Source of the DNA: an uncultured delta proteobacterium
GTDB taxonomy: Bacteria > Myxococcota_A > Polyangia > Polyangiales > Polyangiaceae
Assembly: GCA_963716725.1 (NCBI GenBank)
Contig: CAVQUB010000012.1
Span: forward strand, 1 to 64,000
DNA: 64,000 bases
Direction: 5' to 3'
Position numbers and translations under genes: made by a program. The notes beneath the pieces are model-generated. The model did not search any database. It worked only from the letters and a program-made list of their open reading frames with translations, and was not told the origin of the DNA. Positions 3,943 to 57,573 of the stretch are shown here, one piece after another. Each line of letters starts with the position of its first letter. Within the stretch, counting starts at the first letter, position 1.

Positions 3943-4731
3943 TCACGGGTGGGTCGGCGAGGTGGTGGGCGCATCGTCGACGCCCAACTCTTCGCGGATG
4001 CGCCGATATGCGGCGGACAGCTCGCCGTGGTCGTCGCGGACTGCGGCGCGGAAGCGGTGCGGATCAGCGGCAGCGCTGCGCGAGAATTCGAAGACGCTCA
4101 AGAACGGCGCTTCGTCGCCGGCTTTCATCACGAAGTCTGCCTGGCCGGTTCGCCAGAGATCCTCAGACGCAGCCGCAGCGATCACGCGCTCCTCGAATCG
4201 AGTCTGAAACACCAGATAGCAGCGCGCGGCTTGCGTCATGGCCCGGGCGGCCGCCGCCAGGTAGCTCTCGACGCCGCCGCGCTCTTCAAAGCGGCAGGCA
4301 CGACGCTGAGCGTCTTCGGGAAGCACGCCGGTTCCCAGTGGAAAATACGGTGGCGACCCCGTCACCAGATCGTAGGAACCGTCGCCGAGACCCTCGTCAC
4401 GAAAGTCGGCGTGCCGGATTTCGAAGGTCGAGTCAGGTTGCGGAAGCTCGTCGATCGCTCGGCGTGCCATCAACACGGACTGGAGCTGCGCTTCGATGCC
4501 GTGCGCGACGCGCGGACGCAGCTTGTGGCTCAGCATCAGCAGCACGGAGCCGACGCCGCAGCCCAAATCGAGGTAGCGGTCGGGGCGCTCGCGCTGTCGG
4601 TGCGCGGCGTACCAGGCCGTGATCAAATCATCCGTGCTGGTGCGGTGACCGCCCGTTCGCTGGTACAGGTGCCAGTTCCCGATCAGGCGGTCTCGGCGCG
4701 CGTCCGTGGGCCAAGTCGCGTCGTCGTGCAT
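3943..4731 (-). CDS. SAM-dependent methyltransferase (TrmN6-like family)
   Basis: YLDLGCGVGS motif I, SPPY motif IV, CRFE. Confidence 0.85.
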   Translation of the reverse strand: MHDDATWPTDARRDRLIGNWHLYQRTGGHRTSTDDLITAWYAAHRQRERPDRYLDLGCGVGSVLLMLSHKLRPRVAHGIEAQLQSVLMARRAIDELPQPDSTFEIRHADFRDEGLGDGSYDLVTGSPPYFPLGTGVLPEDAQRRACRFEERGGVESYLAAAARAMTQAARCYLVFQTRFEERVIAAAASEDLWRTGQADFVMKAGDEAPFLSVFEFSRSAAADPHRFRAAVRDDHGELSAAYRRIREELGVDDAPTTSPTHP

Positions 4732-19405: not shown

Positions 19406-20592
19406 GCACCGACGCTCTCGAGCAGTCCCACGAGACGCAGGCCCGATCCTTCGTCGCCCAGGGAGGGATCTTCGCTATCGCCGCGATCGTGATCGTACTG
19501 CCGGCGATCCCCGCGCTTGGCGCCTACCTTCGCGTGGGCGTGAGGGATGCGGTCGTTTCGCTCGCCCCATACCTGCTGACCTCGACGACGGCGACGGTCT
19601 TGTTCAAGACGCGAGGCGTCGGCCGCGCCTACACCGTTGCCAACCACATCGAGAGTTGGACCGTCGCCTGGGTCGTCCACTCGCTGATTTTGGCGAGCGG
19701 GTCGTCTCACAGTATCTTCTGGGCGTTCTATGCGGCGCAGTTGACGGTGTTGGGGGTCGGCCATGAACGGCGCCTGCACGCGCTCGCTATCGTCGGTGGT
19801 GGTCCCGCCCTGCTCGCGCTCGCGTTCCTAGTGTTTCGCGACAGCATGACCGACGCCGTGCTCTCACTTCTGCTGGGAGGGATAGGCTCGGTCATGATCC
19901 TTCAACTGCGCGACGCCTCGGACGCCCTTCGAGCGAAGCTGGCGACGGAGCGCGGCCTTCGCGCGGACCTCGCCGACATCGAATCGCGCCTTGCCCGCTG
20001 GCGCTTGGCTTCGCCCTTGCACGCAGAACTCGATGCTCGTCTTGGCGACGTTGGTGCGGTGGTGCAAGCGCTACGCGCCGACACGGAGGATCCCAGTCTC
20101 GAGCGCGACCTGGACGCGCTCCTAGTCCGCGTGGGCGGCGCGCAGCGGGAGCTTGCGATCGCCACGCGCGTGCTCGAGGGCGGCGCCCGCACGTGGGCCG
20201 AGATAGCCAGCGACTTGCAAGCGCGACTGGTCGAACTCACCCACTCCGTAGAGCTCAGCTTCCTGGATGCGACAGAAGCAGCGCCAGAAACCATTGCTCC
20301 GGAACGCGCGCTGGGATTCGAGCGTGCGGTACTCGAGGCCGTGCGCAATGCGGTCCGCCATTCGAGGGCGAACAAAGTCGAGGTGCGACTGCTGGCTGGC
20401 CAGACCTTGCGCGCCGAGGTGCGTGACGACGGCACTGGGCTGCCGCCGGAGTGCTTCGATCGTGAGACCGGTGGCATCGCAAATCTTCGCCACCGCGCTG
20501 CGCACGCTGGTGGACGGCTGGACGTCACCACGGGCGCGGGAGGCACGCGGATCGTATTCGATGTCCCGAACTTGGAAGCTTCGACGCCGTAG
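19402..20592 (+). CDS. Membrane histidine kinase with HATPase and atypical H-box
   Basis: EAVRNAVRHS (N box), VRDDGTG (G1), GGIANLRHRA, GTRI; H-box region ASPLHAELD. Confidence 0.8.
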   Translation: MSTDALEQSHETQARSFVAQGGIFAIAAIVIVLPAIPALGAYLRVGVRDAVVSLAPYLLTSTTATVLFKTRGVGRAYTVANHIESWTVAWVVHSLILASGSSHSIFWAFYAAQLTVLGVGHERRLHALAIVGGGPALLALAFLVFRDSMTDAVLSLLLGGIGSVMILQLRDASDALRAKLATERGLRADLADIESRLARWRLASPLHAELDARLGDVGAVVQALRADTEDPSLERDLDALLVRVGGAQRELAIATRVLEGGARTWAEIASDLQARLVELTHSVELSFLDATEAAPETIAPERALGFERAVLEAVRNAVRHSRANKVEVRLLAGQTLRAEVRDDGTGLPPECFDRETGGIANLRHRAAHAGGRLDVTTGAGGTRIVFDVPNLEASTP

Positions 20593-21527: not shown

Positions 21528-22478
21528 TCAAGGCTTCGCGAGGCGCATCACGCCTCGAGTGCTCGTGAAGTACACGTTGCTCCCGTCCACTGCGACGTCG
21601 AAGTGCGAAGCGCCAGGATCGGCGTCGGCAACCTTCGCCAAGCCTTCGCCGTTCTTGCCAACCATGAAGATGGCGGCTTGGTCGCCGACGCGCGCGAAGT
21701 AGATCCGATCGCCATCGAGAGCGAGGTAGCTGGCGGGGTTTCCGACGTGGGCGAGCGTCGTCGCGGCCCCCCCGGCCAGCGGTGCCTTCATGACGTAACC
21801 GTCACCGGTGGTGACGTAGACGTTCTCTTCGTCCACGGCCGGACGTCGCGGGTAGACCAATCCCTCGAGCAATGTCACGGGCGACCCGCCGGCGCGTGGC
21901 ACGGCTCTGACCGCGCCCGGCGAGTCGTAGGTCGAGTAGTAGACGTTGTTCGCGTCCACCGCGACGTCCTGCGCCTCGTCCGAATGCAGGAGGACTTCGG
22001 CGTTCGAGCCACCCGCAAGCGGCATGGTCATCAGCGAATTCGACGCGACCCAGTAGGCCTGGCCGCCAGCAAGGGCCAGCCCCTGCGCGGCGTGCTGATC
22101 GGGAGCCAGCGAGACCGGCGTCGCTCCGGGCTCCAAACCGACGCGCATCAGCGCGCCCTCTGCCTGCAGGTGGGCGCCGTTGTTCACCCAAAATACTGAA
22201 TTGTCCACGACCCGCAGCGCCCAAGGGTTCGACTGGCCAGTGGCCAACGTCACAGCCGTCCCGCCCGTGATCGGTGCCGTCCAGATGCGACCGTCCGTCC
22301 ACTCGGCTCCCGACCAGTAGATGTTCGGGCCCTCGGCGACCACGAATGCTGCACTGGGGCTCTGCGCGACGAGCTTCGGCGTGCAGGTGCCGACACAGCT
22401 GGCGCCGTCATCGGGGGAGGGACTCGAGCCGCAACCTACCAGCGCGAGCGCGAGCGCGAGACGAACGGGGCGCGACAC
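21528..22478 (-). CDS. Beta-propeller lipoprotein
   Basis: LALVGC; repeated AVD..NVY blades. Confidence 0.75.
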   Translation of the reverse strand: MSRPVRLALALALVGCGSSPSPDDGASCVGTCTPKLVAQSPSAAFVVAEGPNIYWSGAEWTDGRIWTAPITGGTAVTLATGQSNPWALRVVDNSVFWVNNGAHLQAEGALMRVGLEPGATPVSLAPDQHAAQGLALAGGQAYWVASNSLMTMPLAGGSNAEVLLHSDEAQDVAVDANNVYYSTYDSPGAVRAVPRAGGSPVTLLEGLVYPRRPAVDEENVYVTTGDGYVMKAPLAGGAATTLAHVGNPASYLALDGDRIYFARVGDQAAIFMVGKNGEGLAKVADADPGASHFDVAVDGSNVYFTSTRGVMRLAKP

Positions 22479-50830: not shown

Positions 50831-51504
50831 ATGGCCGAGAGTCGAGAGTTTGAAGCGTGGCGCACGGCTCATGCTGATGCGGGATGCGATGCGCCGTCCG
50901 GGCCGACCGACCCGCGCTGGCGCGCAGTTCGCGGGTAGGCCGAAGCGGATCTGCACCACCGGCTCATCGCGCTTCCGTACATCGACATGCCGCGGAGCGA
51001 AGCGCACGTGCGAGGAGTGCGCGACCATGCACGATCGCTTCGACGACTCAATCGCAGCCGCAGAAAACTGGGTTTCGGTCGCGCCATCAGCGTCGTCTGA
51101 CTGCGCCGCGCTATCGTCGCCCCGCTGTTCTCGCCCGCCCACTCCGGATATATTTCAGCGCTCACGAGCCGCCGCACATCCATTTGAGTACCAAGGTCAC
51201 GAGGCCTTCGTGGCATCGCAGCAGGTGAGGTGCTCGAGGGGTCGCCTGCCAAGGCGGCAATCTCAGTTGCCGAAAGTCTGCGCTCCTCATCGCCCAGCAT
51301 TTCGTCGCGTAAACGCCTCACTTTACGCAAAGGCTCCGCCGGCGGCTGGGTCTGGTCCCGTGGCGTGGGTTCTTCCTCCCTCACCGCACCCGACGCGCTT
51401 CGTGACGATCCTTGAAAGTGCCCGGAGGGGCATCCCCGGCGGGGGGAACCCAAGTCCCCGGTCCCCGATCGTCGCGTGGCGCTTTGCTCAGACCGGAGCG
51501 CGCG

Positions 51505-51572
51505 TGGCGCATGCCCGCGCGCACGCGGCGGGGCGCATGCCCGCGCGCACGCGGCGGGGCGCACGCGGCGGG
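51505..51572. repeat. Short tandem duplication (gcgcatgcccgcgcgcacgcggcggg, about 2.5 copies)
   Basis: Read directly. Confidence 0.7.
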
Positions 51573-51673
51573 GGGAGACGCGCCGGTTCAGGACGCGAGG
51601 CCCCCGAGCTGACTCCCCGAGCCCGAGCCTTCGCCTTCGACGTTCCCACCCGGAGGGAGTAAACTTCCCGGTG

Positions 51674-51919
51674 ATGCACGCCCTGAAAGCCCAGGTGAAG
51701 AACGGCAGGCTTGTTCTCGATGAACCAACGGACCTGCCGGAGGGCGAGATCGTCGAGTTGATCGCCGTCGATGAGGTACTGGCGAAGGGCGGGGACTACC
51801 TCGATGACGAGGAACGGGAACGGCTCCATGCGGCCCTGGAGCGCTCGATCGAGCAGGCCCAGGATGGCAAACTGATCGACGCCAGCGTCGTGATGGCCAA
51901 GCTCCGAGCGATCCCTTGA
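51674..51919 (+). CDS. Putative antitoxin
   Basis: MHALKAQVKNGRLVLDEPTDLPEG...; overlaps the start of a ParE-like gene. Confidence 0.7.
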   Translation: MHALKAQVKNGRLVLDEPTDLPEGEIVELIAVDEVLAKGGDYLDDEERERLHAALERSIEQAQDGKLIDASVVMAKLRAIP

Positions 51920-52085
51920 AGCTGACCGTTCGGTTTACTCCGGAGGCCGAGAGTCGGGCGATTGCCGTTGCGACCTGGTGGAGGGTGAACGGCATCGTCC
52001 GTGACCTGTTCGACCGAGAGCTTGCGGAGGCTCAGGAGAAAGTGATCGCCGAGCCGCTCCTCGGCGTGGTCTACCGGACGGCAAG
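51916..52085 (+). pseudogene. RelE/ParE-like toxin, truncated
   Basis: VRFTPEA...WW...LF..EL...P..G..Y, then runs into the transpeptidase fragment. Confidence 0.65.
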
Positions 52086-52091
52086 GGGAGC

Positions 52092-52393
52092 CCCGGTCCC
52101 CGATCGTCGCCGCTGCGCACCGAGCGCCACGTATCGGGCACGCGCAGCTCGGCTTCGCCCGAACGGGGAAGACGGGCTGCGCCGAGAGAGCGCGGGCGCC
52201 TTGGGTGGCGATCGCCACCTGACTTCGCCACTTCGCCGCCTGTCGGCGAACGAATCCTCCGGGACTCTGCGGCTCTGCCGCGCGGCACGGGACTCGCTCA
52301 TGCACGCATGGCGTGGGCCACGCCGCACACGCCTTCCCCCAGCCTGAGCGCTCGCGCTTTCGCCATCGACCGGAGAGCACCGTGCTCTACCAG
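52092..52393 (+). repeat. Deleted copy of the IS91-like upstream region (matches 53893-53943, 54162-54192, 54265-54482)
   Basis: Shared strings such as gggtggcgatcgccacctgacttcgccacttcgccgcctg and cgccatcgaccggagagcaccgtgctctaccag. Confidence 0.85.
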
Positions 52394-52756
52394 ACTCGGG
52401 AGTCGCGGCGCCGCCACTGGTCGTGTCGTAGCCCGGACCCGCCGTGGCTTTGACCACGTTGGGCTCGGGCTGCTAGGGGTGCCCCAACCCGCGCGTCCTC
52501 GGCATGCGCGGTTGGTCGTGCATGAGACACGAAGCGTCGTGGCCTGCGGCCGCGCGACCTTCCCCAAACGCCGCGTGTGGCGCAAACGCGAGCTGGCTTC
52601 GGAGATGGCGTGCGGCGGCGGCAGGGTGAGCTGAGAACGGCGGCGAGTGGCGGCCGCCGCCGGCGGCCCGCGGTTTCGCCACTCACCGAGGCCTGTAACT
52701 TGCGGCATTTTGGCCGAGAGCACGCTCGGCACGCGGCGTGCGCTTGGGCGCGCCGA

Positions 52757-52980
52757 TGGCTGCCGTGCTGCCGCCCCCGGACGCGGGCTCGGACGGTGCC
52801 GGCGCCCCGTACCGCCAGCGCCGGCCCGAGCTCGGTGCGCTCTACCAGATTATCGCGGACAACTTCCGCACGCTGGAAGCCGCTGCCGAGCAGGGCCTGG
52901 TCGCGCCGCTGCCGTCCTTCGTGAGGGACGAGTTCTTGGGCTATCTCGACTGCGGCGTGCTCGCGCGGGGCTTTGGATTT
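52757..52980 (+). pseudogene. IS91-like transposase N-terminal fragment
   Basis: YRQRRPE..ALYQ...LPSFVRDEFLGYLDCGVLARGF; similar to the N-terminus of 54402..56111. Confidence 0.8.
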
Positions 52981-52984
52981 CTCC

Positions 52985-53695
52985 AGCGCCAAAACCCAGA
53001 CCTTGGATTCCGACACGGCGTGACGAAGGCGAATCGTTCGCCGACGCCCTACGAGGAAGCGATGCGCGTACGTGGAGCGAACGGTGAACCACTGCTCGGA
53101 CTCATGCAACGCCTTCAGCGTGGCGTACCGGTCGCCTCCGCGGTCGAGCTGAAACCACGCCCGACCACCAACCGCAGTCAGGCACAGCGCGGCTCCTCGG
53201 ATGGCGCTCAGCCAGTACCTGGTTTCCTTCTCGTCTACCGTTCGGTGCTGGCAGTCCTTTCGTTTCTTACGCGCTTCGCGCCTCCACCACTTCTGGCCGA
53301 GAAGCCCAGTCGGGGCTCCGTCGGCGGCCAGCGCGTAGGCGTTGAGCACCTTGAGCCCTCGCGCGCCGAGGTTGGTCGCACCGATCGCTCCGAAATCCTT
53401 GTTCCGCTGCCAGTCGGTGAGAGTCAGCGCCGTCCCGTCGATCGCGACGAAACAGAACTCCGCGCCGCGACAAGCCAAGGCCGTTGCCTGCGTGACCGCG
53501 TCCTGAACTGCCTCGGGCGAGACGCTTCCGTTGCTCAGGAAATCGTATGCTCCCTGCCGAGTCGCGCTGGTTCGGCATACCTCGAGTACCTTTCCTCCGG
53601 GCCGCTGCGCGACCTCTGTGGCAATCCGAACGAGTCTCCGCGTTCGTCGCGAGTCACCGAGGTTCGCGTGCCCGAAGACATCTTCCGCCCAGTCC
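52985..53695 (-). pseudogene. IS4/Tn5-like transposase fragment
   Basis: Hand translation: WAEDVFGHANLGDSRRTRRL...GAYDFLSN...AIDGT...KETRYW...DRGGD. Confidence 0.85.
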
Positions 53696-53699
53696 CGTG

Positions 53700-53840
53700 C
53701 GTCAGAAGGGCTCGCACAAGCCGCGCGCGCGCGAGGAATGGCCCAATTACACGTGGGCTTTCCACGACGGCGAGGACATCGGCCCGCGCATGCTCGCCAG
53801 GATTGCGAAGCGCACCGGGCTCACGCCCGAGGATCTGTGA
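53700..53840 (+). pseudogene. HicA-like toxin 3' fragment
   Basis: QKGSH...WAFHDGEDIGPRMLARIAKRTGL. Confidence 0.75.
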
Positions 53841-53871
53841 CGCACCCGTCCGTAGCCAAAACGAATGGGGT

Positions 53872-54063
53872 TTACCGCACCCGCACCCAAGTCCCCGGTC
53901 CCCGATCGTCGCCGCTGCGCACGCCATGCCAGGTCTCGGGCACCTGGGGCTCGGTCCACGAGAACAGCCACTTGGCATCCCGGATCGAGAGGTTCACGCA
54001 GCCGCCGCTCTTGGGCTCGCCAAAGCGATCGTGCCAGTAGGCCGCATGCAACGCGAAGGGCAT
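53872..54063 (-). pseudogene. L,D-transpeptidase catalytic C-terminal fragment (63 aa, own ATG)
   Basis: ALHAAYWHDRFGEPKSGGCVNLS..DA YkuD motif. Confidence 0.8.
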
Positions 54064-54401
54064 GTGTCTTCCTGCCCCAACTCGCCGGTGCTCCTCGCAC
54101 CCCTTCGAGTATCGCGAAGCGCGTCGCTTCGCGCTCGTGCGCGCCTGCGGTCTTCCCCTAAGCTCGGGCTTCGCCCGAGCGGGGAAGACGGGTCGCTCCG
54201 AGCCAGGTGTGTCGTCGCTGAGCTTACGCGCGGCTCGTGGTGCTCGGCCGGCGCAGTGGTCGGGCTGCGCCGGGAGAGAGCGCGCGCCCCTGGGTGGCGA
54301 TCGCCACCTGACTTCGCCACTTCGCCGCCTGCGGGCGAACGAGTTCTCAGGGAAATTGCGGCTCTGCTGCGTGGCACGGGACTCGCTCATGCATCCGTGG
54401 C

Positions 54402-56111
54402 GTGGGCCATCCCGCACACGCGCTCGCACCGTCCGAGCGATCGCGTTCCCGCCATCGACCGGAGAGCACCGTGCTCTACCAGACGGTGGCGGAGCACTGG
54501 CCGGCGTTCTTGGAGCGGGCCGAAGAGCACGGCGGCTTGCCGCGCTTCACCCCGTCGGGTGTCACGCAGCGCGTCGTGGTGAAGGAGTTCGAGGAGTATT
54601 TAGGGTGTGGACAGCTCGAGCGAGGTTGTCTGCACCTCGTGTGTCGTGACTGCGGTTACTCCGACCTCGTGGCGTTTTCGTGCAAAAAGCGCGGCTTTTG
54701 CCCATCTTGTGTCGGGCGACGCATGGCGGACATGGCCGTGCATTTGGAGGAGCGAGTTCTGCCCCGTGTGCGGATCCGCCATTGGATTTGCTCCTTGCCC
54801 TGGGGGCTGCGTGCGCTGCTCGGCTACGACCCTTGGAAGTCCCAGAAGTGGGACGACCGGAAGCTCTGCGCAGAAGTGGTCAGCGCGTTCATGGCGGAGG
54901 TGGACCGCTCGCTGCGCAGGCGCGCGAAGCGCGAGCTCGGAATCGCAAGCGTCACGAGAGCATACACCGGCGGCGTGGTCGCGGTGCAGAGGACGGACGG
55001 TGCTTTGAGACTGAACGTCCACGGCCACGCTCTCGTGCTCGACCGCGTGTACGTGCATCAGGACGACGACCCGAGCGCTCCGCTCGAGTTCCGCGAGCTC
55101 GACACGCCATCGCACGCCGACATCGCGGAGGTCGCGTCACGCACGGCGACACGCATCGAGAAGATCCTGCGCGCGCACGGACGGAGCCTCGACCCCGAGC
55201 TCGGGGACGACACGCCGCCCGAGCTCGCCCTCGACGAGCCCGGCCTCGCAGCTTGCTACTCCGCCGCGGCGCAGGGCATCCCCCGTCGGGGACTTCCAGG
55301 GGTCGTCTCCGTGACCGGCGAACGAGCAGGAAAACCACCGCTCCGTCTCATCGCGTCGCCCGAATCGCCCGCGCGCCCGCGCGCCGCCGACGCCACCGAC
55401 GAGCCCATCGCCGAGGTGCGCGGCATCAACATTCACGCCGCCCAAGCCATCGACGGCCGCGATCGCCGTCGCGTGGAGCGAATCTGTAAGTACGACCCTT
55501 GGAAGTCCCCGACGGGGGACATCACGCGCCCACCTGTCGCGCAGGACCGCCTCGAGCGCCGCGCGGATGGCAAACTCGAGCTCAGCTTCAAGCGTGCTTG
55601 GCGTGACGACCCTTGGAAGTCCCCGACGGGGGGCGGCACACGCGCGCTGGTCTTCGAGCCCGCCGACCTCATCCCGCGCCTCGTCGCCGCGGTGCCGCCG
55701 CCTCGCTGGCATCTCCTCAGGTACTTCGGCGTGCTCTCCCTCTTCAGGGACTTCCAAGGGTCGTCGAGCCACTCCTCGCGCCGGCGTCTCGTCGTGCCCA
55801 CACCGCCGGCGGACGCGACCGCGAACAAGCCGCCGCCAGCCCGCGGCGATCAGCTCGAGCTACTTGGCGAGAAGGACGACGCGCCGGTGCCGCGCAAACG
55901 ATGGGCATGGATGCTGGCCCACGTGTTCCAAGCTGACATGGACCATTGTCCCCGCTGCTCCGGTCCGATGCGCTGGGCCGAGGTCGCCACGACGCGTGCT
56001 GCCATCACCCGCCTGCTCGCCGAGCACGGTCTCGGGGCGAGAGCGCCGCCGCGTCAACACGTGAACCTTCGGGTGCCCGAGCAGCTCGTGTTGGGGTTCG
56101 GGGAAGGGTGA
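54402..56111 (+). CDS. IS91-family (HUH) transposase with Zn-binding domain, carrying six in-frame 27-nt insertions
   Basis: C..C...SCKKRGFCPSC; NVHGH (HUH); KY..TRPP; PPRWHLLRYFGV; C-terminal CPRC. Confidence 0.9.
   Translation: MGHPAHALAPSERSRSRHRPESTVLYQTVAEHWPAFLERAEEHGGLPRFTPSGVTQRVVVKEFEEYLGCGQLERGCLHLVCRDCGYSDLVAFSCKKRGFCPSCVGRRMADMAVHLEERVLPRVRIRHWICSLPWGLRALLGYDPWKSQKWDDRKLCAEVVSAFMAEVDRSLRRRAKRELGIASVTRAYTGGVVAVQRTDGALRLNVHGHALVLDRVYVHQDDDPSAPLEFRELDTPSHADIAEVASRTATRIEKILRAHGRSLDPELGDDTPPELALDEPGLAACYSAAAQGIPRRGLPGVVSVTGERAGKPPLRLIASPESPARPRAADATDEPIAEVRGINIHAAQAIDGRDRRRVERICKYDPWKSPTGDITRPPVAQDRLERRADGKLELSFKRAWRDDPWKSPTGGGTRALVFEPADLIPRLVAAVPPPRWHLLRYFGVLSLFRDFQGSSSHSSRRRLVVPTPPADATANKPPPARGDQLELLGEKDDAPVPRKRWAWMLAHVFQADMDHCPRCSGPMRWAEVATTRAAITRLLAEHGLGARAPPRQHVNLRVPEQLVLGFGEG
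54549..55762. repeat. Six dispersed 27-nt hairpin elements: 54549-54575(-), 54828-54854(+), 55278-55304(-), 55494-55520(+), 55608-55634(+), 55736-55762(-)
   Basis: Consensus GACCCTTGGAA GTCCCN GAMG NGGGAC; the first copy is divergent. Confidence 0.9.
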
Positions 56112-56469
56112 GGCTTCGTCGCGGGACTCGCCAAGGCGGTGCTCCGTGCGCGGTGGCGCGTTCTGCCTCGCTGTGACGCTCAGCAGCGGCAACCAACTGT
56201 TCAGCCAGCCACCCCGACCTGCCTCTCGACCTCCGACCGCCACGCGCGTACCCTGAGCATCGGTGGGTTTTGGCAGTTCGTTCCTCCTACGCGCGCCTCC
56301 CGCCTCGGCGACGGACCCGCCCGACGCATCCCAGCAGGGGGTTTCGAAACCGCCACCGCGCCGCGAGCCGAAGAGTCCTGCATCGGCTTCCGCGGCGAGC
56401 TCCCTGGGCATTCACGCCGACGGCCTGCTCGACCGCAAATGAGAGGTGCTAGCGTCTGGGGCAGCTCCG

Positions 56470-57573
56470 ATGAGCCGATCGCCCCTAGCCCAGCGACCAC
56501 TGACGCTGGCCCTCGCGGCCGCCGTGATGCTCCTGCCGCGTTTGGCGCGTGCCGAGCCGAGTGACGCAGACCGTCGCCAAGCCCAGGCGCTGTTCGAGCA
56601 AGGGCGGGTGTTGCTCGCGGAGCAGCGCTACGCCGAAGCCTGCCCCGCTTTCGCCGAGAGCCAGCGACTCGACCCCGGAGGCGGGACGCTCTTGAACCTG
56701 GCCGTCTGCCACGAGAAGCAGGGCCGACTGGCCACGGCCTACGCCGAGTACCAAGACGCGCTCAGCGCGGCTCGGGCCGACAGGCGCCAGGATCGTGCGC
56801 GGATCGCCACGCTGCGCCTCGAGGCGCTCGAGGGCAAGATCGCCCGCGTGCGCTTCGAGGTCGCCTCGGCGGCGGACGGCGCTTCCATCACGATCGAGCT
56901 CGACGGAACGAAAGTCCCCGAGCTTGCCTGGTCGACGCCCACACCAATCGACCCCGGTGTGCATCGCATCGTCGTGAGCGCGCCAGGCCACCGGAGCTGG
57001 CAGTCCCAGCTCGACGTCGCGACGGATGGCGGCGAGAGGGTCGTTTCGGTGCCCCGCCTCGAGGCGGTCGAAAGCCGAGGGGAGGCCCCAAAGCCGGTTG
57101 CTCCGCGTGCGCCGGCGCCGGCGGCGTGTCCGGCGGGCGGGCGAAGCGTCGGAGGTCGCTGCGTAGAGGCGCCCAGTGTCGATCGGGGCACAGAGGAGCG
57201 TCGTTTCGCTACAGCGTCCTGGGTGCTCGGCGGCGTGGGTGTGACTGCGCTCGGGGTCTCAGCGGTGACCGGCGCGATGGCGCTTTCGGCGAGCTCCGCC
57301 TCGGAAGATGCCAAGCGCCGTGCGGGCTGCGTGTCCGAGCGCCAGTTCTGTCGCGACTCGTCCGCTCTCGCTGAGTACCGCGATGACGCCGAGCGGGCGC
57401 GCTCGCTCGCCTGGATCAGTACCGGCGCGCTGGTCGCTGGCAGCGGCGCGGTCGTCGCCGCATGGCTTTGGCCGCGGGAGCACGTTTCGCGTCCGGTCGC
57501 CTCGATAGCCCTCACCCCGAGCCCGGGCCCCGGCTCGCTTTTTGTGTCCCTCCAAGGTCCCTGGTCAAACTGA
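56470..57573 (+). CDS. Secreted TPR / PEGA-like protein
   Basis: AQALFEQGR...ACPAFAES...TLLNLA.C.E; PIDPG.H; C-terminal hydrophobic segments. Confidence 0.8.
   Translation: MSRSPLAQRPLTLALAAAVMLLPRLARAEPSDADRRQAQALFEQGRVLLAEQRYAEACPAFAESQRLDPGGGTLLNLAVCHEKQGRLATAYAEYQDALSAARADRRQDRARIATLRLEALEGKIARVRFEVASAADGASITIELDGTKVPELAWSTPTPIDPGVHRIVVSAPGHRSWQSQLDVATDGGERVVSVPRLEAVESRGEAPKPVAPRAPAPAACPAGGRSVGGRCVEAPSVDRGTEERRFATASWVLGGVGVTALGVSAVTGAMALSASSASEDAKRRAGCVSERQFCRDSSALAEYRDDAERARSLAWISTGALVAGSGAVVAAWLWPREHVSRPVASIALTPSPGPGSLFVSLQGPWSN

Follow-up and report, generated by a model that had tools for sequence, protein, structure and literature searches.

The PATEs of the IS200/IS605 group have hairpin-defined ends, are inserted 3' of a short specific word without duplication and are excised seamlessly, and they depend on a Y1 enzyme as well as on two subterminal hairpins that are separate from each other. 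The REP/RAYT elements have, in the part of PMC3733652 cited here, one end tagged by a tetranucleotide, GTAG or CGTC, and the DDE-type MITEs are characterised in the same part by a target duplication and by inverted repeats of 15-30 bp at their termini. The Rickettsia palindromic elements (RPE) are selfish palindromic repeats that lie in frame in genes unrelated to one another and are translated into additional stretches of peptide (extract of PMC10969869). In the case of IS91, the target is not duplicated, the tetranucleotide at which insertion takes place (CTTG, GTTC or GTCC) resembles the terIS cleavage word, the subterminal palindrome adjoins the cleavage site, and the intermediate is a single-stranded circle (excerpted account in PMC13181058).

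The locus compared here with these systems lies in a window of 64,000 nucleotides (the whole stretch of DNA that was analysed) and consists of a gene carrying six short hairpin units. Its assignment to the IS91-like HUH transposases in the preliminary description is borne out by the Pfam domains Zn_Tnp_IS91 (3.4e-15) and Y2_Tnp, the latter scoring 33.7 bits as compared to about 72 bits in the insert-free paralogues. The features are as follows, a slash marking the insertion point.

51394..51447, plus strand: 54-nt composite, the seventh copy in the window, from the head-plus-stem scan, outside the span described earlier
54402..56111, plus strand: open reading frame of the IS91-like (Y2 HUH) transposase, 569 aa from the first GTG, carrying six units
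54547..54573, minus strand: unit 1, type B, CGCGCTGCGTGA-CACCC-GACG-GGGTGA, exact 27-nt gap in four paralogues
54827..54853, plus strand: unit 2, type A, CGACCCTTGGAAGTCCCAGAAGTGGGA, after CTCGGCTA, 27-nt gap in four paralogues
55279..55305, minus strand: unit 3, type A, after GGAGA, empty site GGAGA/TGCC
55493..55519, plus strand: unit 4, type A, after AAGTA, right behind the conserved CKY of the Y2 domain
55607..55633, plus strand: unit 5, type A, after CGTGA, last base G, not A (paralogue alignment)
55737..55763, minus strand: unit 6, type A, after CTCGA (paralogue alignment)
56026..56027, no strand: empty site GAGCA/CGGTC, filled by a type A unit in the paralogues C5:21472 and C10:8693-8720

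The host transposase is probably inactive, judging from its translation, in which the HUH motif reads HGH (55020-55028) as against HFH in the aligned insert-free paralogues, and unit 4 begins immediately behind the conserved CKY.

The blocks were located within the reported span, namely five similar 27-mers at 54828 (+), 55278-55304 (-), 55494 (+), 55608 (+) and 55736-55762 (-), and a divergent sixth at 54549-54575 (-). The junction analysis shifts the boundary by one base relative to these 27-mers, whose last base belongs to the flank, and defines the unit as C-GACCCTKGGAAGT-stem-loop-stem-A, with a target side ending in A, mostly GA; unit 1 is the divergent sixth copy moved into the C...GA register. 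It is literally true, as had been stated, that three blocks lie on each strand and that each follows an AC, but AC is not the target, its C being the first base of the unit. The register "after A, unit starting with C" alone fits all sites, since sites 3 and 6 have no AC when empty, as is evident from GGAGA/TGCC for unit 3. Among the 101 head-selected matches, counted in the earlier register, 99 have C at base -1 and 95 have A at base -2, with G before that position in 78, and the last base of the 27-mer is distributed as C 67, A 15, G 12 and T 7. Insertion takes place after A, usually GA, in either orientation, with a duplication never longer than one base: most copies are flanked by a one-base A...A repeat, which is indistinguishable from no duplication, and sites 2 and 4 (left TA, right GA) rule out a target duplication of two or more bases. 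The size of the unit is accordingly 27 nt, or 26 nt with a further base added by duplication. Between the stem-loop and the 3' junction there is 0-1 base, and target and unit both end in (G)A, although unit 5, with its terminal G, counts against a strict 3' A rule. The role proposed earlier for the IS91 target CTTG/GTTC is not reflected in the junctions, which read A/C and mostly GA/CG; units behind CCCTTG are seen as nested copies in the genomes G156 and G042 only.

The conserved 14-nt head contains a 2-bp mini-hairpin around a CTT loop, and its positions C3 and G9 switch jointly to T and A in one subfamily. The stem of 4-6 bp encloses a loop G-N-N-G and drifts in sequence with the pairing kept: at least five of six pairs are retained in 85 of the 101 head-selected matches, and the paired fraction is 0.764, as compared to 0.661 +/- 0.014 (maximum 0.707) in 1000 shuffles. 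In 41 distinct units picked on the head alone, pair 14-25 is CG in 20, AT in 6 and GC in 4, and pair 17-22 is CG in 21, TA in 10, AT in 3 and GC in 2; the covariation first noticed at the loop-closing pair is thus upheld, with three to four Watson-Crick types at two stem positions. The units had also been called stop-free in the frames they occupy, and 78 of 98 copies are indeed free of stop codons in all six frames (49% for random genomic 27-mers), the remaining 20 having a stop in one frame. The length of 3n and the few stops in most frames would allow the copies to be retained in genes, where they form loops of 9 residues.

The six 27-nt blocks are real insertions. Exact presence and absence of 27 nt was established at 10 sites across nine paralogous IS91-like copies, and the alignment with the in-genome paralogues C13:112619-114341, C13:127077-128799 and the C8 copies shows exact 27-nt (9-aa) gaps at all six unit places, so that removal of 27 nt does restore the protein, as had been proposed. 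The site of unit 3 is filled in C13b and empty in C13c, C13d, C8a, C8c and C5b, and that of unit 4 is also filled in an IS91-like gene of G336, a genome of another genus (L236 element at 4478). One site of an orthologous ArsA-like gene, of the single-copy type, contains 27 nt in G000, the genome of the window, and a 54-nt composite in its congener G005, and is empty in six copies from G001-G004 and G006. The stretch is further covered by public contigs of four runs from four studies: precisely the 27 letters of unit 2 are missing from the 261-nt contig of run X5 (54624-54911), which shows 0 other differences, the contig of run X1 (55213-55420, 0 differences) spans unit 3, and that of run X9 has 37 other letters at the site 56026..56027, a weak observation at depth 4. 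Most of the listed public contigs end at unit borders, as expected for repeats. At the C34 counterpart of the site 56026..56027, the unit is present and interrupted by an IS4-like element. The insert-free state is the majority among paralogues and orthologues, contrary to ancestral 9-aa segments, and the filled and empty alleles in paralogues, ArsA-like orthologues and a public contig support the notion of a minimal non-autonomous hairpin insertion that survives in coding sequence.

The preliminary description had confined the units to the transposase gene and found no copy elsewhere in the 64 kb. Both statements are to be corrected, with the composite at 51394-51447 in the window and 121 units at 82 loci in the genome by the head-plus-stem scan; in all, the observation and its interpretation are each borne out in part. 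The 16-mer with at most one mismatch gave 85 genome matches (control 0). Of the blocks in the transposase gene, four match the 27-mer with at most three mismatches (0 expected in 100 shuffles) and five match the 16-nt head (0.07 expected). In the composite, a type B unit (51394-51405 plus 51433-51447) is split behind its GA by a nested type A unit (51406-51432, head GATCCTTGAAAGT). The nested copies comprise such 54-nt composites as well as insertions within the hairpin loops and heads of other units, and the genome has 18 copies of the type B head of unit 1 that carry a nested type A unit. The tandem arrays consist of 2-9 identical 27-nt units placed head-to-tail. Because its own 3' end reads GA, the unit can insert behind itself, giving tandem arrays, or inside other copies, giving 54-nt composites. 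In-frame copies behind or between Pfam domains of the same open frame were found at 10 of the 41 loci examined, the domains being rve, rve_3, FG-GAP, TPR (two loci), RluB-like, Crp-like, CCG/Fer4, HNH and ArsA-like.

The period of 27 is not special in this genome, where TRF gives 91 period-27 arrays among many of period 3n. Arrays of units are also located upstream of a six-copy HNH gene. The IS4-like element uses unit hairpins as targets, making 8-bp duplications, and is inserted in the hairpin of unit 1 in the C13 paralogue.

The head with a co-varying stem was found in Fibrobacterota, Gammaproteobacteria, Bacillota and other Myxococcota MAGs, with 3-73 copies in each of five genomes of other lineages (0-1 in the reversed-pattern control). 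The collection scan revealed at least 34 full units among the 116 stretches listed, most of which are chance matches to the 16-mer; the units come from Myxococcota, Fibrobacterota/Chitinivibrionales, Gammaproteobacteria, Bacillota and Anaerolineales MAGs, and the hairpin-bearing matches listed are all from MAGs. The distribution within the phylum is very patchy, with 0 to 90 copies between related genomes, and more than one head was present in only 6 of the 301 genomes sampled (90, 82, 15, 8, 5 and 2 copies). In the literature within coverage, which leaves out most subscription journals, the family is not described under in-frame palindromic repeats, myxobacterial REP/RAYT or Myxococcota 27-bp repeats, and the head used as a search word returned plant qPCR primers only.

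The explanation that we favour, with a probability of roughly 0.55, is a non-autonomous hairpin mobile element of 27 nt (26 plus one duplicated base), moved as single-stranded DNA by an HUH-type strand-transferase supplied in trans. The element would travel as a single strand, and an enzyme specific for both its sequence and its hairpin would cut and rejoin it. The layout may be that of an IS91 end in miniature, the target word being the same as the terminating-end word, with the palindrome abutting and no target duplication. The preference for rolling-circle elements that had been suggested stands as far as host usage is concerned, IS91-like genes being strongly over-used (10 distinct sites in one gene lineage of roughly 1.7 kb); the excess may be due to single-stranded intermediates, to a cis-acting Y2 enzyme or to mere tolerance in decaying mobile genes. 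The targeting of hairpin loops or cruciforms is not shown by the self-complementarity of the flanks in G000, with a mean best stem of 2.79 at the 43 unique single-insertion sites and 2.73 at 20,000 random GA sites, which do not differ. By eye, several loci in other phyla look like hairpin-loop targeting.

No enzyme could be tied to the element among the Y1, Y2, HNH and unit-neighbour genes checked. A RAYT/Y1 partner, sought in G000, 40 relatives and 10 further genomes, was rejected because it does not co-occur with the element and its flanks bear other hairpins. Y1_Tnp was not found in G045 (73 copies), G041 (20), G156 (82), G001 and G002, and the sole clear Y1_Tnp gene of G000 (C5:165574-165909) is flanked by CCCCGGGAT..ATCCCGGGG hairpins instead of the unit, at variance with the RAYT/TnpA gene flanked by the same hairpin that had been anticipated. 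Y2_Tnp is present in G000-G003, G005, G006, G042, G044, G045, G156 and G336, was not found in G041, G043 and G019, and is common in element-free relatives; it appears to be neither necessary nor sufficient for the element in the genomes tested, several of which are incomplete MAGs, which weakens the calls of presence and absence alike. Its occurrence in G156 but not in the element-free congeners G289 and G327 is suggestive in that genus only. Nine sampled Y2 loci (G156, G336, G042, G044, G045) contained no units, and the right end of the host IS91-like element shows by eye only a loose 8-of-10 match to the unit. The six-copy HNH gene was rejected as a partner, a single protein query having no match in G041-G045. 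The 33 open reading frames neighbouring units in G041, G042, G043, G045, G156 and G336 have no enzyme in common, and those matched by Pfam belong to ordinary housekeeping families.

Among the rival explanations, templated addition at DNA breaks survives best and is still improbable. In such a process, a telomerase-like enzyme (reverse transcriptase or polymerase) would copy one fixed, short template to add one or more 27-nt units to a (G)A 3' end, followed by resealing, which would suit the constant unit length, the duplication never exceeding one base and the lack of a co-occurring transposase, while a junction after (G)A and a unit ending in (G)A would permit re-alignment and hence perfect tandem arrays. 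However, neither a template locus nor an associated polymerase was found, many templates would be required for the 28-41 distinct units of one genome, opposite orientations stand side by side within one gene, and the nesting in hairpin loops and heads fits a self-recognising element better than random breaks.

An ordinary MITE derived from a DDE transposon and moved by cut-and-paste, whose terminal inverted repeats would be very short and whose target duplication would be short too, must be regarded as very improbable. The ends CGACCC...GGG(G)A with inverted CCC/GGG, the A...A repeat around most copies and the activity of a DDE IS4-like element in the same hairpins are in its favour, but the inverted repeats do not extend beyond 3-5 bases, sites 2 and 4 leave no room for a duplication of two or more bases, the IS4-like element gives 8-bp duplications and has the hairpins as its targets, and head-to-tail arrays are no MITE trait; at the loci inspected, no full-length DDE element with the head and its inverse at its two ends was seen. 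Slightly less credible again is a selected RNA or DNA motif, such as a riboswitch-like structure or a protein-binding site, instead of a selfish insertion. The conservation of the head across phyla, the position of arrays upstream of the HNH gene and the GGGACGACCC hairpins formed at the unit junctions of arrays, which score 30.4 bits with the guanidine-II (mini-ykkC) model, would agree with it; the score, however, is below the Rfam gathering score of 32 and arises only where two units join, Rfam gave nothing at gathering score and no match at 51000-57000, the copies are situated in both orientations inside the reading frames of unrelated genes, and their number varies from 0 to 90 between related genomes. 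That the units are artefacts of assembly or library, or ancestral parts of the protein which the homologues have lost, can hardly be entertained in spite of the source genome being a MAG, 84% complete, and of the MAG origin of all the hairpin-bearing matches listed, as independent assemblies of many projects, among them G002 (5 contigs), contain the units, the contigs of four runs and four studies map to the stretch, one of them spanning unit 3 unchanged, and the units obey the junction rule, co-vary, nest, are cut by an IS with 8-bp duplications, and are missing from the majority of paralogues and orthologues.

Taken as a non-autonomous single-strand hairpin element, the family bears on the minimal sequence need of mobile DNA, for which one conserved 14-nt head and one hairpin may suffice, and the filled and empty sites together with the junction rule GA/CG...GA/ are precise and testable at the bench. 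Where translated, a single copy lengthens an enzyme or regulator by a 9-residue loop and an array by 72 residues, so that the element contributes variation in protein length as well as repeats of variable copy number. For annotation, it accounts for unusual insertions of 9 aa and lowered domain scores in MAGs of Myxococcota and of other groups, and its patchy spread across phyla without a known partner enzyme offers a handle on a new or re-purposed single-strand DNA transferase. A bolder and doubtful extension would place it among the smallest mobile DNAs known, as a single-stranded unit of 26/27 nt with start and stop signals around one hairpin, crossing phyla, handled by a new strand-transferase or an IS91-type Y2 acting on GA/CG, and shaped for life in coding genes by its length of 3n, few stops and loop-forming residues; its copying from a mini-circle by the rolling-circle mode is possible and would explain the perfect tandem arrays.

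In comparison with the known systems, the unit resembles REP/REPIN (RAYT, Y1 HUH), as far as these are covered by the cited part of PMC3733652, in being a 20-40-nt sequence made of a short conserved head and a GC-rich imperfect palindrome, in its about a hundred copies per genome, and in copies that are clustered, serve as IS targets and lie in some cases inside ORFs; the unit, 27 nt long and present 121 times, has the size (20-40 bp), the imperfect palindrome and the high copy number of that class. Unlike REP, its ends CGAC.../...GGGA have no GTAG or CGTC tag (in one stem variant, CGTC is read as the complement of the GACG loop, and nowhere else), its arrays are head-to-tail instead of inverted doublets, many of its copies lie within genes, one and the same head recurs very patchily in several phyla, and no RAYT gene flanked by these repeats was found in the genomes checked, the Y1 gene of G000 having other hairpins. 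The likeness to PATEs comprises a hairpin-defined end and insertion 3' of a short word with no duplication beyond one base, but both signals would need to fit in 27 nt and the Y1 genes do not co-occur. The unit differs from DDE MITEs in having only CCC/GGG inverted and no duplication of two or more bases. With IS91/ISCR, the likeness is restricted to the ends, that is, a palindrome abutting a terminating end whose word resembles the target, and to the strong concentration of units in IS91-like genes here, whereas the target is (G)A and not CTTG, GTTC or GTCC, the unit has 27 nt and no gene, and the ends of the host IS91-like element are unlike it. The RPE are about 150 bp long and described only for Rickettsia species in the extract of PMC10969869, while the present unit has 27 nt of unrelated sequence, crosses phyla and is found both in tandem arrays and nested in other copies of itself; what the two share is a behaviour, in-frame insertion, which does not make the unit a member of that group. 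The best reading of the family is, therefore, a non-autonomous single-strand hairpin mini-transposon, REP/RPE-like, with the logic of the IS91 family.

The open reading frame at 54402..56111(+) encodes a 569-aa product with the IS91 transposase zinc-binding domain and a partial Y2 transposase domain. Six 27-mers, five of them similar and the sixth divergent, lie in it where the preliminary description had placed them, three per strand; 4 matches to the 27-mer and 5 to its 16-nt head were found, where shuffling predicts 0 and 0.07. The genome of the window (G000, in which the window is C12:1-64000) contains many paralogues of this gene, including intact 527-aa copies on contig C13 and also copies on C8, insert-free and about 74% identical to it in DNA. 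These paralogues lack all six blocks, with the clean gaps of 9 residues foreseen for the protein alignment, and a DNA alignment of nine paralogous copies has gaps of exactly 27 nt at all six. By this sequence comparison, the blocks are insertions, with the following borders.

Inserted units in the window transposase gene
54547-54573(-), unit 1, divergent (type B)
54827-54853(+), unit 2, type A
55279-55305(-), unit 3, type A
55493-55519(+), unit 4, type A
55607-55633(+), unit 5, type A
55737-55763(-), unit 6, type A

Counting four extra sites in the nine-copy alignment, a single gene lineage about 1.7 kb long has ten distinct insertion sites (a slash marks the insertion point here and below).

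Extra insertion sites
after CCCTCGA, filled in paralogue copy C5b only
a further site, filled in copy C13b only
a type-B-like 27-nt block, filled in copy C5b only
AEH/GLG, filled in copies C5b and C10, empty in the window at 56026/56027

The window copy looks inactive, judging from its sequence; its HUH motif reads HGH versus HFH in the insert-free paralogues, unit 4 is placed directly behind the conserved CKY, and the Y2 domain scores 33.7 bits versus about 72 bits.

When each insertion was slid against its empty paralogue, only one register suited every site, which starts at the C of the AC previously taken as the target and ends one base before the end of the 27-mer first proposed. Without the insertion, sites 3 and 6 read GGAGA/TGCC and CTCGA/GAGC; neither contains AC, so that the proposed target had to be abandoned. 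Of 101 hits selected by their head only, 99 have C directly before GACCC, 95 have A at the second position upstream and 78 have G at the third; the last base of the original 27-mer varies (C 67, A 15, G 12, T 7). Since the single fitting register and these counts agree, the junction rule reads, at the sequence level, ...(G)A / C-GACCCTKGGAAGT-stem-loop-stem-A / N..., and it is also obeyed by the copies in other genomes. A unit of 27 nt that causes no duplication looks the same as one of 26 nt that duplicates a single base; a duplication of 2 bases or more is excluded where the insertion site follows TA.

At least 5 of the 6 stem pairs are kept in 85/101 head-selected hits, and the hits with fewer pairs are mostly units broken by an IS or another unit. 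The stem covariation noted earlier was confirmed at two positions with compensatory changes, counted over 41 distinct head-selected units (CG 20, AT 6, GC 4 at the first; CG 21, TA 10, AT 3, GC 2 at the second), and the paired fraction is 0.764, against a maximum of 0.707 in 1000 shuffles. By inspection, the head contains a 2-bp mini-hairpin with CTT in its loop, both partners of which are altered in the subfamily GATCCTTGAAAGT (C3/G9 to T3/A9), and type B has GCG-CTT-CGC at this position. The two-unit junction, GGGA/CGACCC, forms a GGG-ACGA-CCC hairpin; where units follow one another in an array, or close into a circle, the point of joining would thus lie within a small hairpin loop. The tandem arrays reach 30.4 bits with the guanidine-II riboswitch model, under its gathering score of 32, and this identity was rejected, the match being read as a coincidence of the junction.

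The head has 85 matches in G000 at no more than 1 mismatch (reversed-pattern control, 0), and a scan for heads with up to 2 mismatches and at least 5/6 stem pairs found 121 units at 82 loci. The supposed confinement to the transposase gene is thereby refuted, and a further locus at window 51394-51447, beyond the span considered before, contradicts the absence of other copies in the 64 kb. Perfect head-to-tail 27-nt arrays of 2 to 9 units occur, as do 54-nt composites with one unit nested within another. The divergent sixth copy represents a second type, B, CGCGCTKCGYGA-YNCCC-loop-GGGN-GA, which elsewhere almost always carries a nested type A unit behind its GA (18 loci). Six near-identical regions preceding an HNH-endonuclease ORF of 489 aa differ solely in the number of 27-nt units, i.e., they are a copy-number-variable array within a multi-copy gene family.

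HNH-upstream arrays in G000
C2:193797, 4 units
C3:37335, 2 units
C5:605042, 7 units
C6:47678, 2 units
C21:51032, 6 units
C33:25635, 5 units

Among other repeats, a 26-nt sequence, GGCGCATGCCCGCGCGCACGCGGCGG, is perfectly repeated in tandem over 2.2 copies at window 51506-51563, just downstream of the 51394-51447 composite, and C3:186590-193318 holds a CRISPR array with a 61-nt period and 112 repeats, whose core is CCTCCGCACGCGCGGAGG. The window between 52 and 57 kb is a mobile-element patchwork with pieces common to C12:67-71 kb and C13:83-93 kb; the 363-aa open frame at 52387-53478(-), adjoining the IS91-like gene, resembles by eye a DDE transposase fragment.

The loops of the unit hairpins are the target of an IS4-like DDE element, about 1.5 kb long with an ORF of 469 aa at C10:8852-10261, which makes an 8-bp duplication, CCC[GT]TCGG. 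Ends of this element were found at 11 further places, including C13:84056-85522, where it splits unit 1 of an IS91-like paralogue, and a contig from public run X9 stops at window 54551 against its end. Unit stems at C1:147990 and on C11(-) near 21566-21593 contain an internal 8-nt direct duplication, CTGGCGAG CTGGCGAG, which looks like an excision footprint of this hairpin-targeting IS.

Filled and empty alleles were also found between genomes. An ArsA-like gene carries a 27-nt unit in G000 and, in G005 (C42), a 54-nt composite belonging to a related family of hairpins no more than 1-2 bases from that site, which is empty in G001, G002 (two copies), G003, G004 and G006; a composite like that of G005 spans a deletion within an IS91-like remnant at G000 C3:262941. 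Contigs of four public runs, each from a different study, lie on the transposase stretch, and most of those listed end at unit borders because the units are repeats. A 261-nt contig of run X5 (54624-54911) lacks exactly unit 2 and is otherwise identical, and one of run X1 spans unit 3 without change.

For the coding context, 41 loci (40 fetched regions, L171-L210, and L152) were taken, and 77 unit-covering open frames were scanned against Pfam. At 10 loci the unit shares its frame with matched domains and stands after or between them, hence inside coding sequence; at seven more it precedes the first domain and possibly lies outside the gene.

In-frame hosts
two integrase-core transposases
FG-GAP protein
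two TPR proteins, one with an eight-unit array
pseudouridine synthase tail
Crp-like regulator tail
CCG/4Fe-4S protein tail
HNH protein
ArsA-like ATPase

Both orientations relative to the host frame occur. The claim that the element is stop-free in the frames it occupies is supported: 78/98 copies lack stops in all six frames, against 49% of random genomic 27-mers, the other 20 having a stop in one frame.

Within the genus, 5/6 other genomes have a few copies when searched with a restricted pattern, and more than one head was found in only 6/301 genomes of an even sample of the phylum (G000 90, G156 82, G002 15, G001 8, G336 5, G117 2), single-head matches being about as frequent as reversed-control ones; two congeners of G156 gave no heads. 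A species-collection scan matched at least 116 stretches, and among the matches listed 34 have the full head and stem, all from MAGs, their record titles naming Myxococcales, Polyangiaceae, Kofleriaceae, other 'Deltaproteobacteria', Fibrobacterota/Chitinivibrionales, Gammaproteobacteria, Bacillota and Anaerolineales. Five of these genomes contain 20, 14, 8, 3 and 73 heads, two with tandem 27-nt pairs or arrays. In G156 (C2:49008-49061, C1:134151-134309), tandem 20-nt truncated units CGACCCTTGGAAGTCCCCGA and units behind CCCTTG inside other heads were found, the latter a self-target different from the GGGA/AGT of G000.

As to the enzyme, one clear Y1_Tnp gene (IS200/RAYT type) is present in G000, at C5:165574-165909(-), and lies between hairpins of another kind, CCCCGGGAT..ATCCCGGGG plus GCCCGCCCTTCGGGCGGGC, which form an inverted pair. 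These are unrelated to the 27-nt unit and would be a separate REP-like family; Y1_Tnp had no match in the element-bearing G045, G041, G156, G001 and G002. Y2_Tnp was found in most element-bearing genomes, including G156 as opposed to its element-free congeners, and was absent from G041, G043 and G019. It is common among element-free relatives, and nine sampled Y2 loci outside the genus had no units. The HNH protein had no match in five other element-bearing genomes, and the neighbours of units in other genomes that matched Pfam were housekeeping genes. All these absences are soft because several genomes are incomplete. By rough reckoning, Y2 genes make up about 0.3% of the genome and hold at least 15 of some 60 unique unit sites, an excess of roughly 80-fold. 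Such an excess would fit cis action or a preference for single-stranded intermediates and, just as well, greater tolerance of insertions by decaying mobile genes; the units also occur in integrase-core transposases and HNH genes.

As for the mechanism, the target word is repeated at the unit's own 3' end, adjoined by the palindrome, the units stand in either orientation with no duplication of 2 bases or more, an empty allele has unchanged flanks, and the unit is found inserted into its own copies. The same features also hold for IS200/IS605 elements. A single-strand HUH-type mechanism is favoured by analogy because such features, with a single-stranded circular intermediate, are given for IS91-family ends in PMC13181058. 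The observation in the preliminary description is real but was drawn too narrowly, and its minimal mobile hairpin element is largely right, apart from its target, gene confinement and RAYT link.

No description of the family was found in the literature searched, which covered few subscription journals. REPs of the GTAG and CGTC super-families (PMC3733652) and the Rickettsia palindromic elements of about 150 bp (PMC10969869) are, like the 27-nt family, small palindromic repeats found also within genes. Unlike them, it has neither end tag nor RAYT link and is distinguished by a strict 27-nt unit with head-to-tail arrays and self-nesting, a defined A/C junction, and one head distributed very patchily across several phyla.
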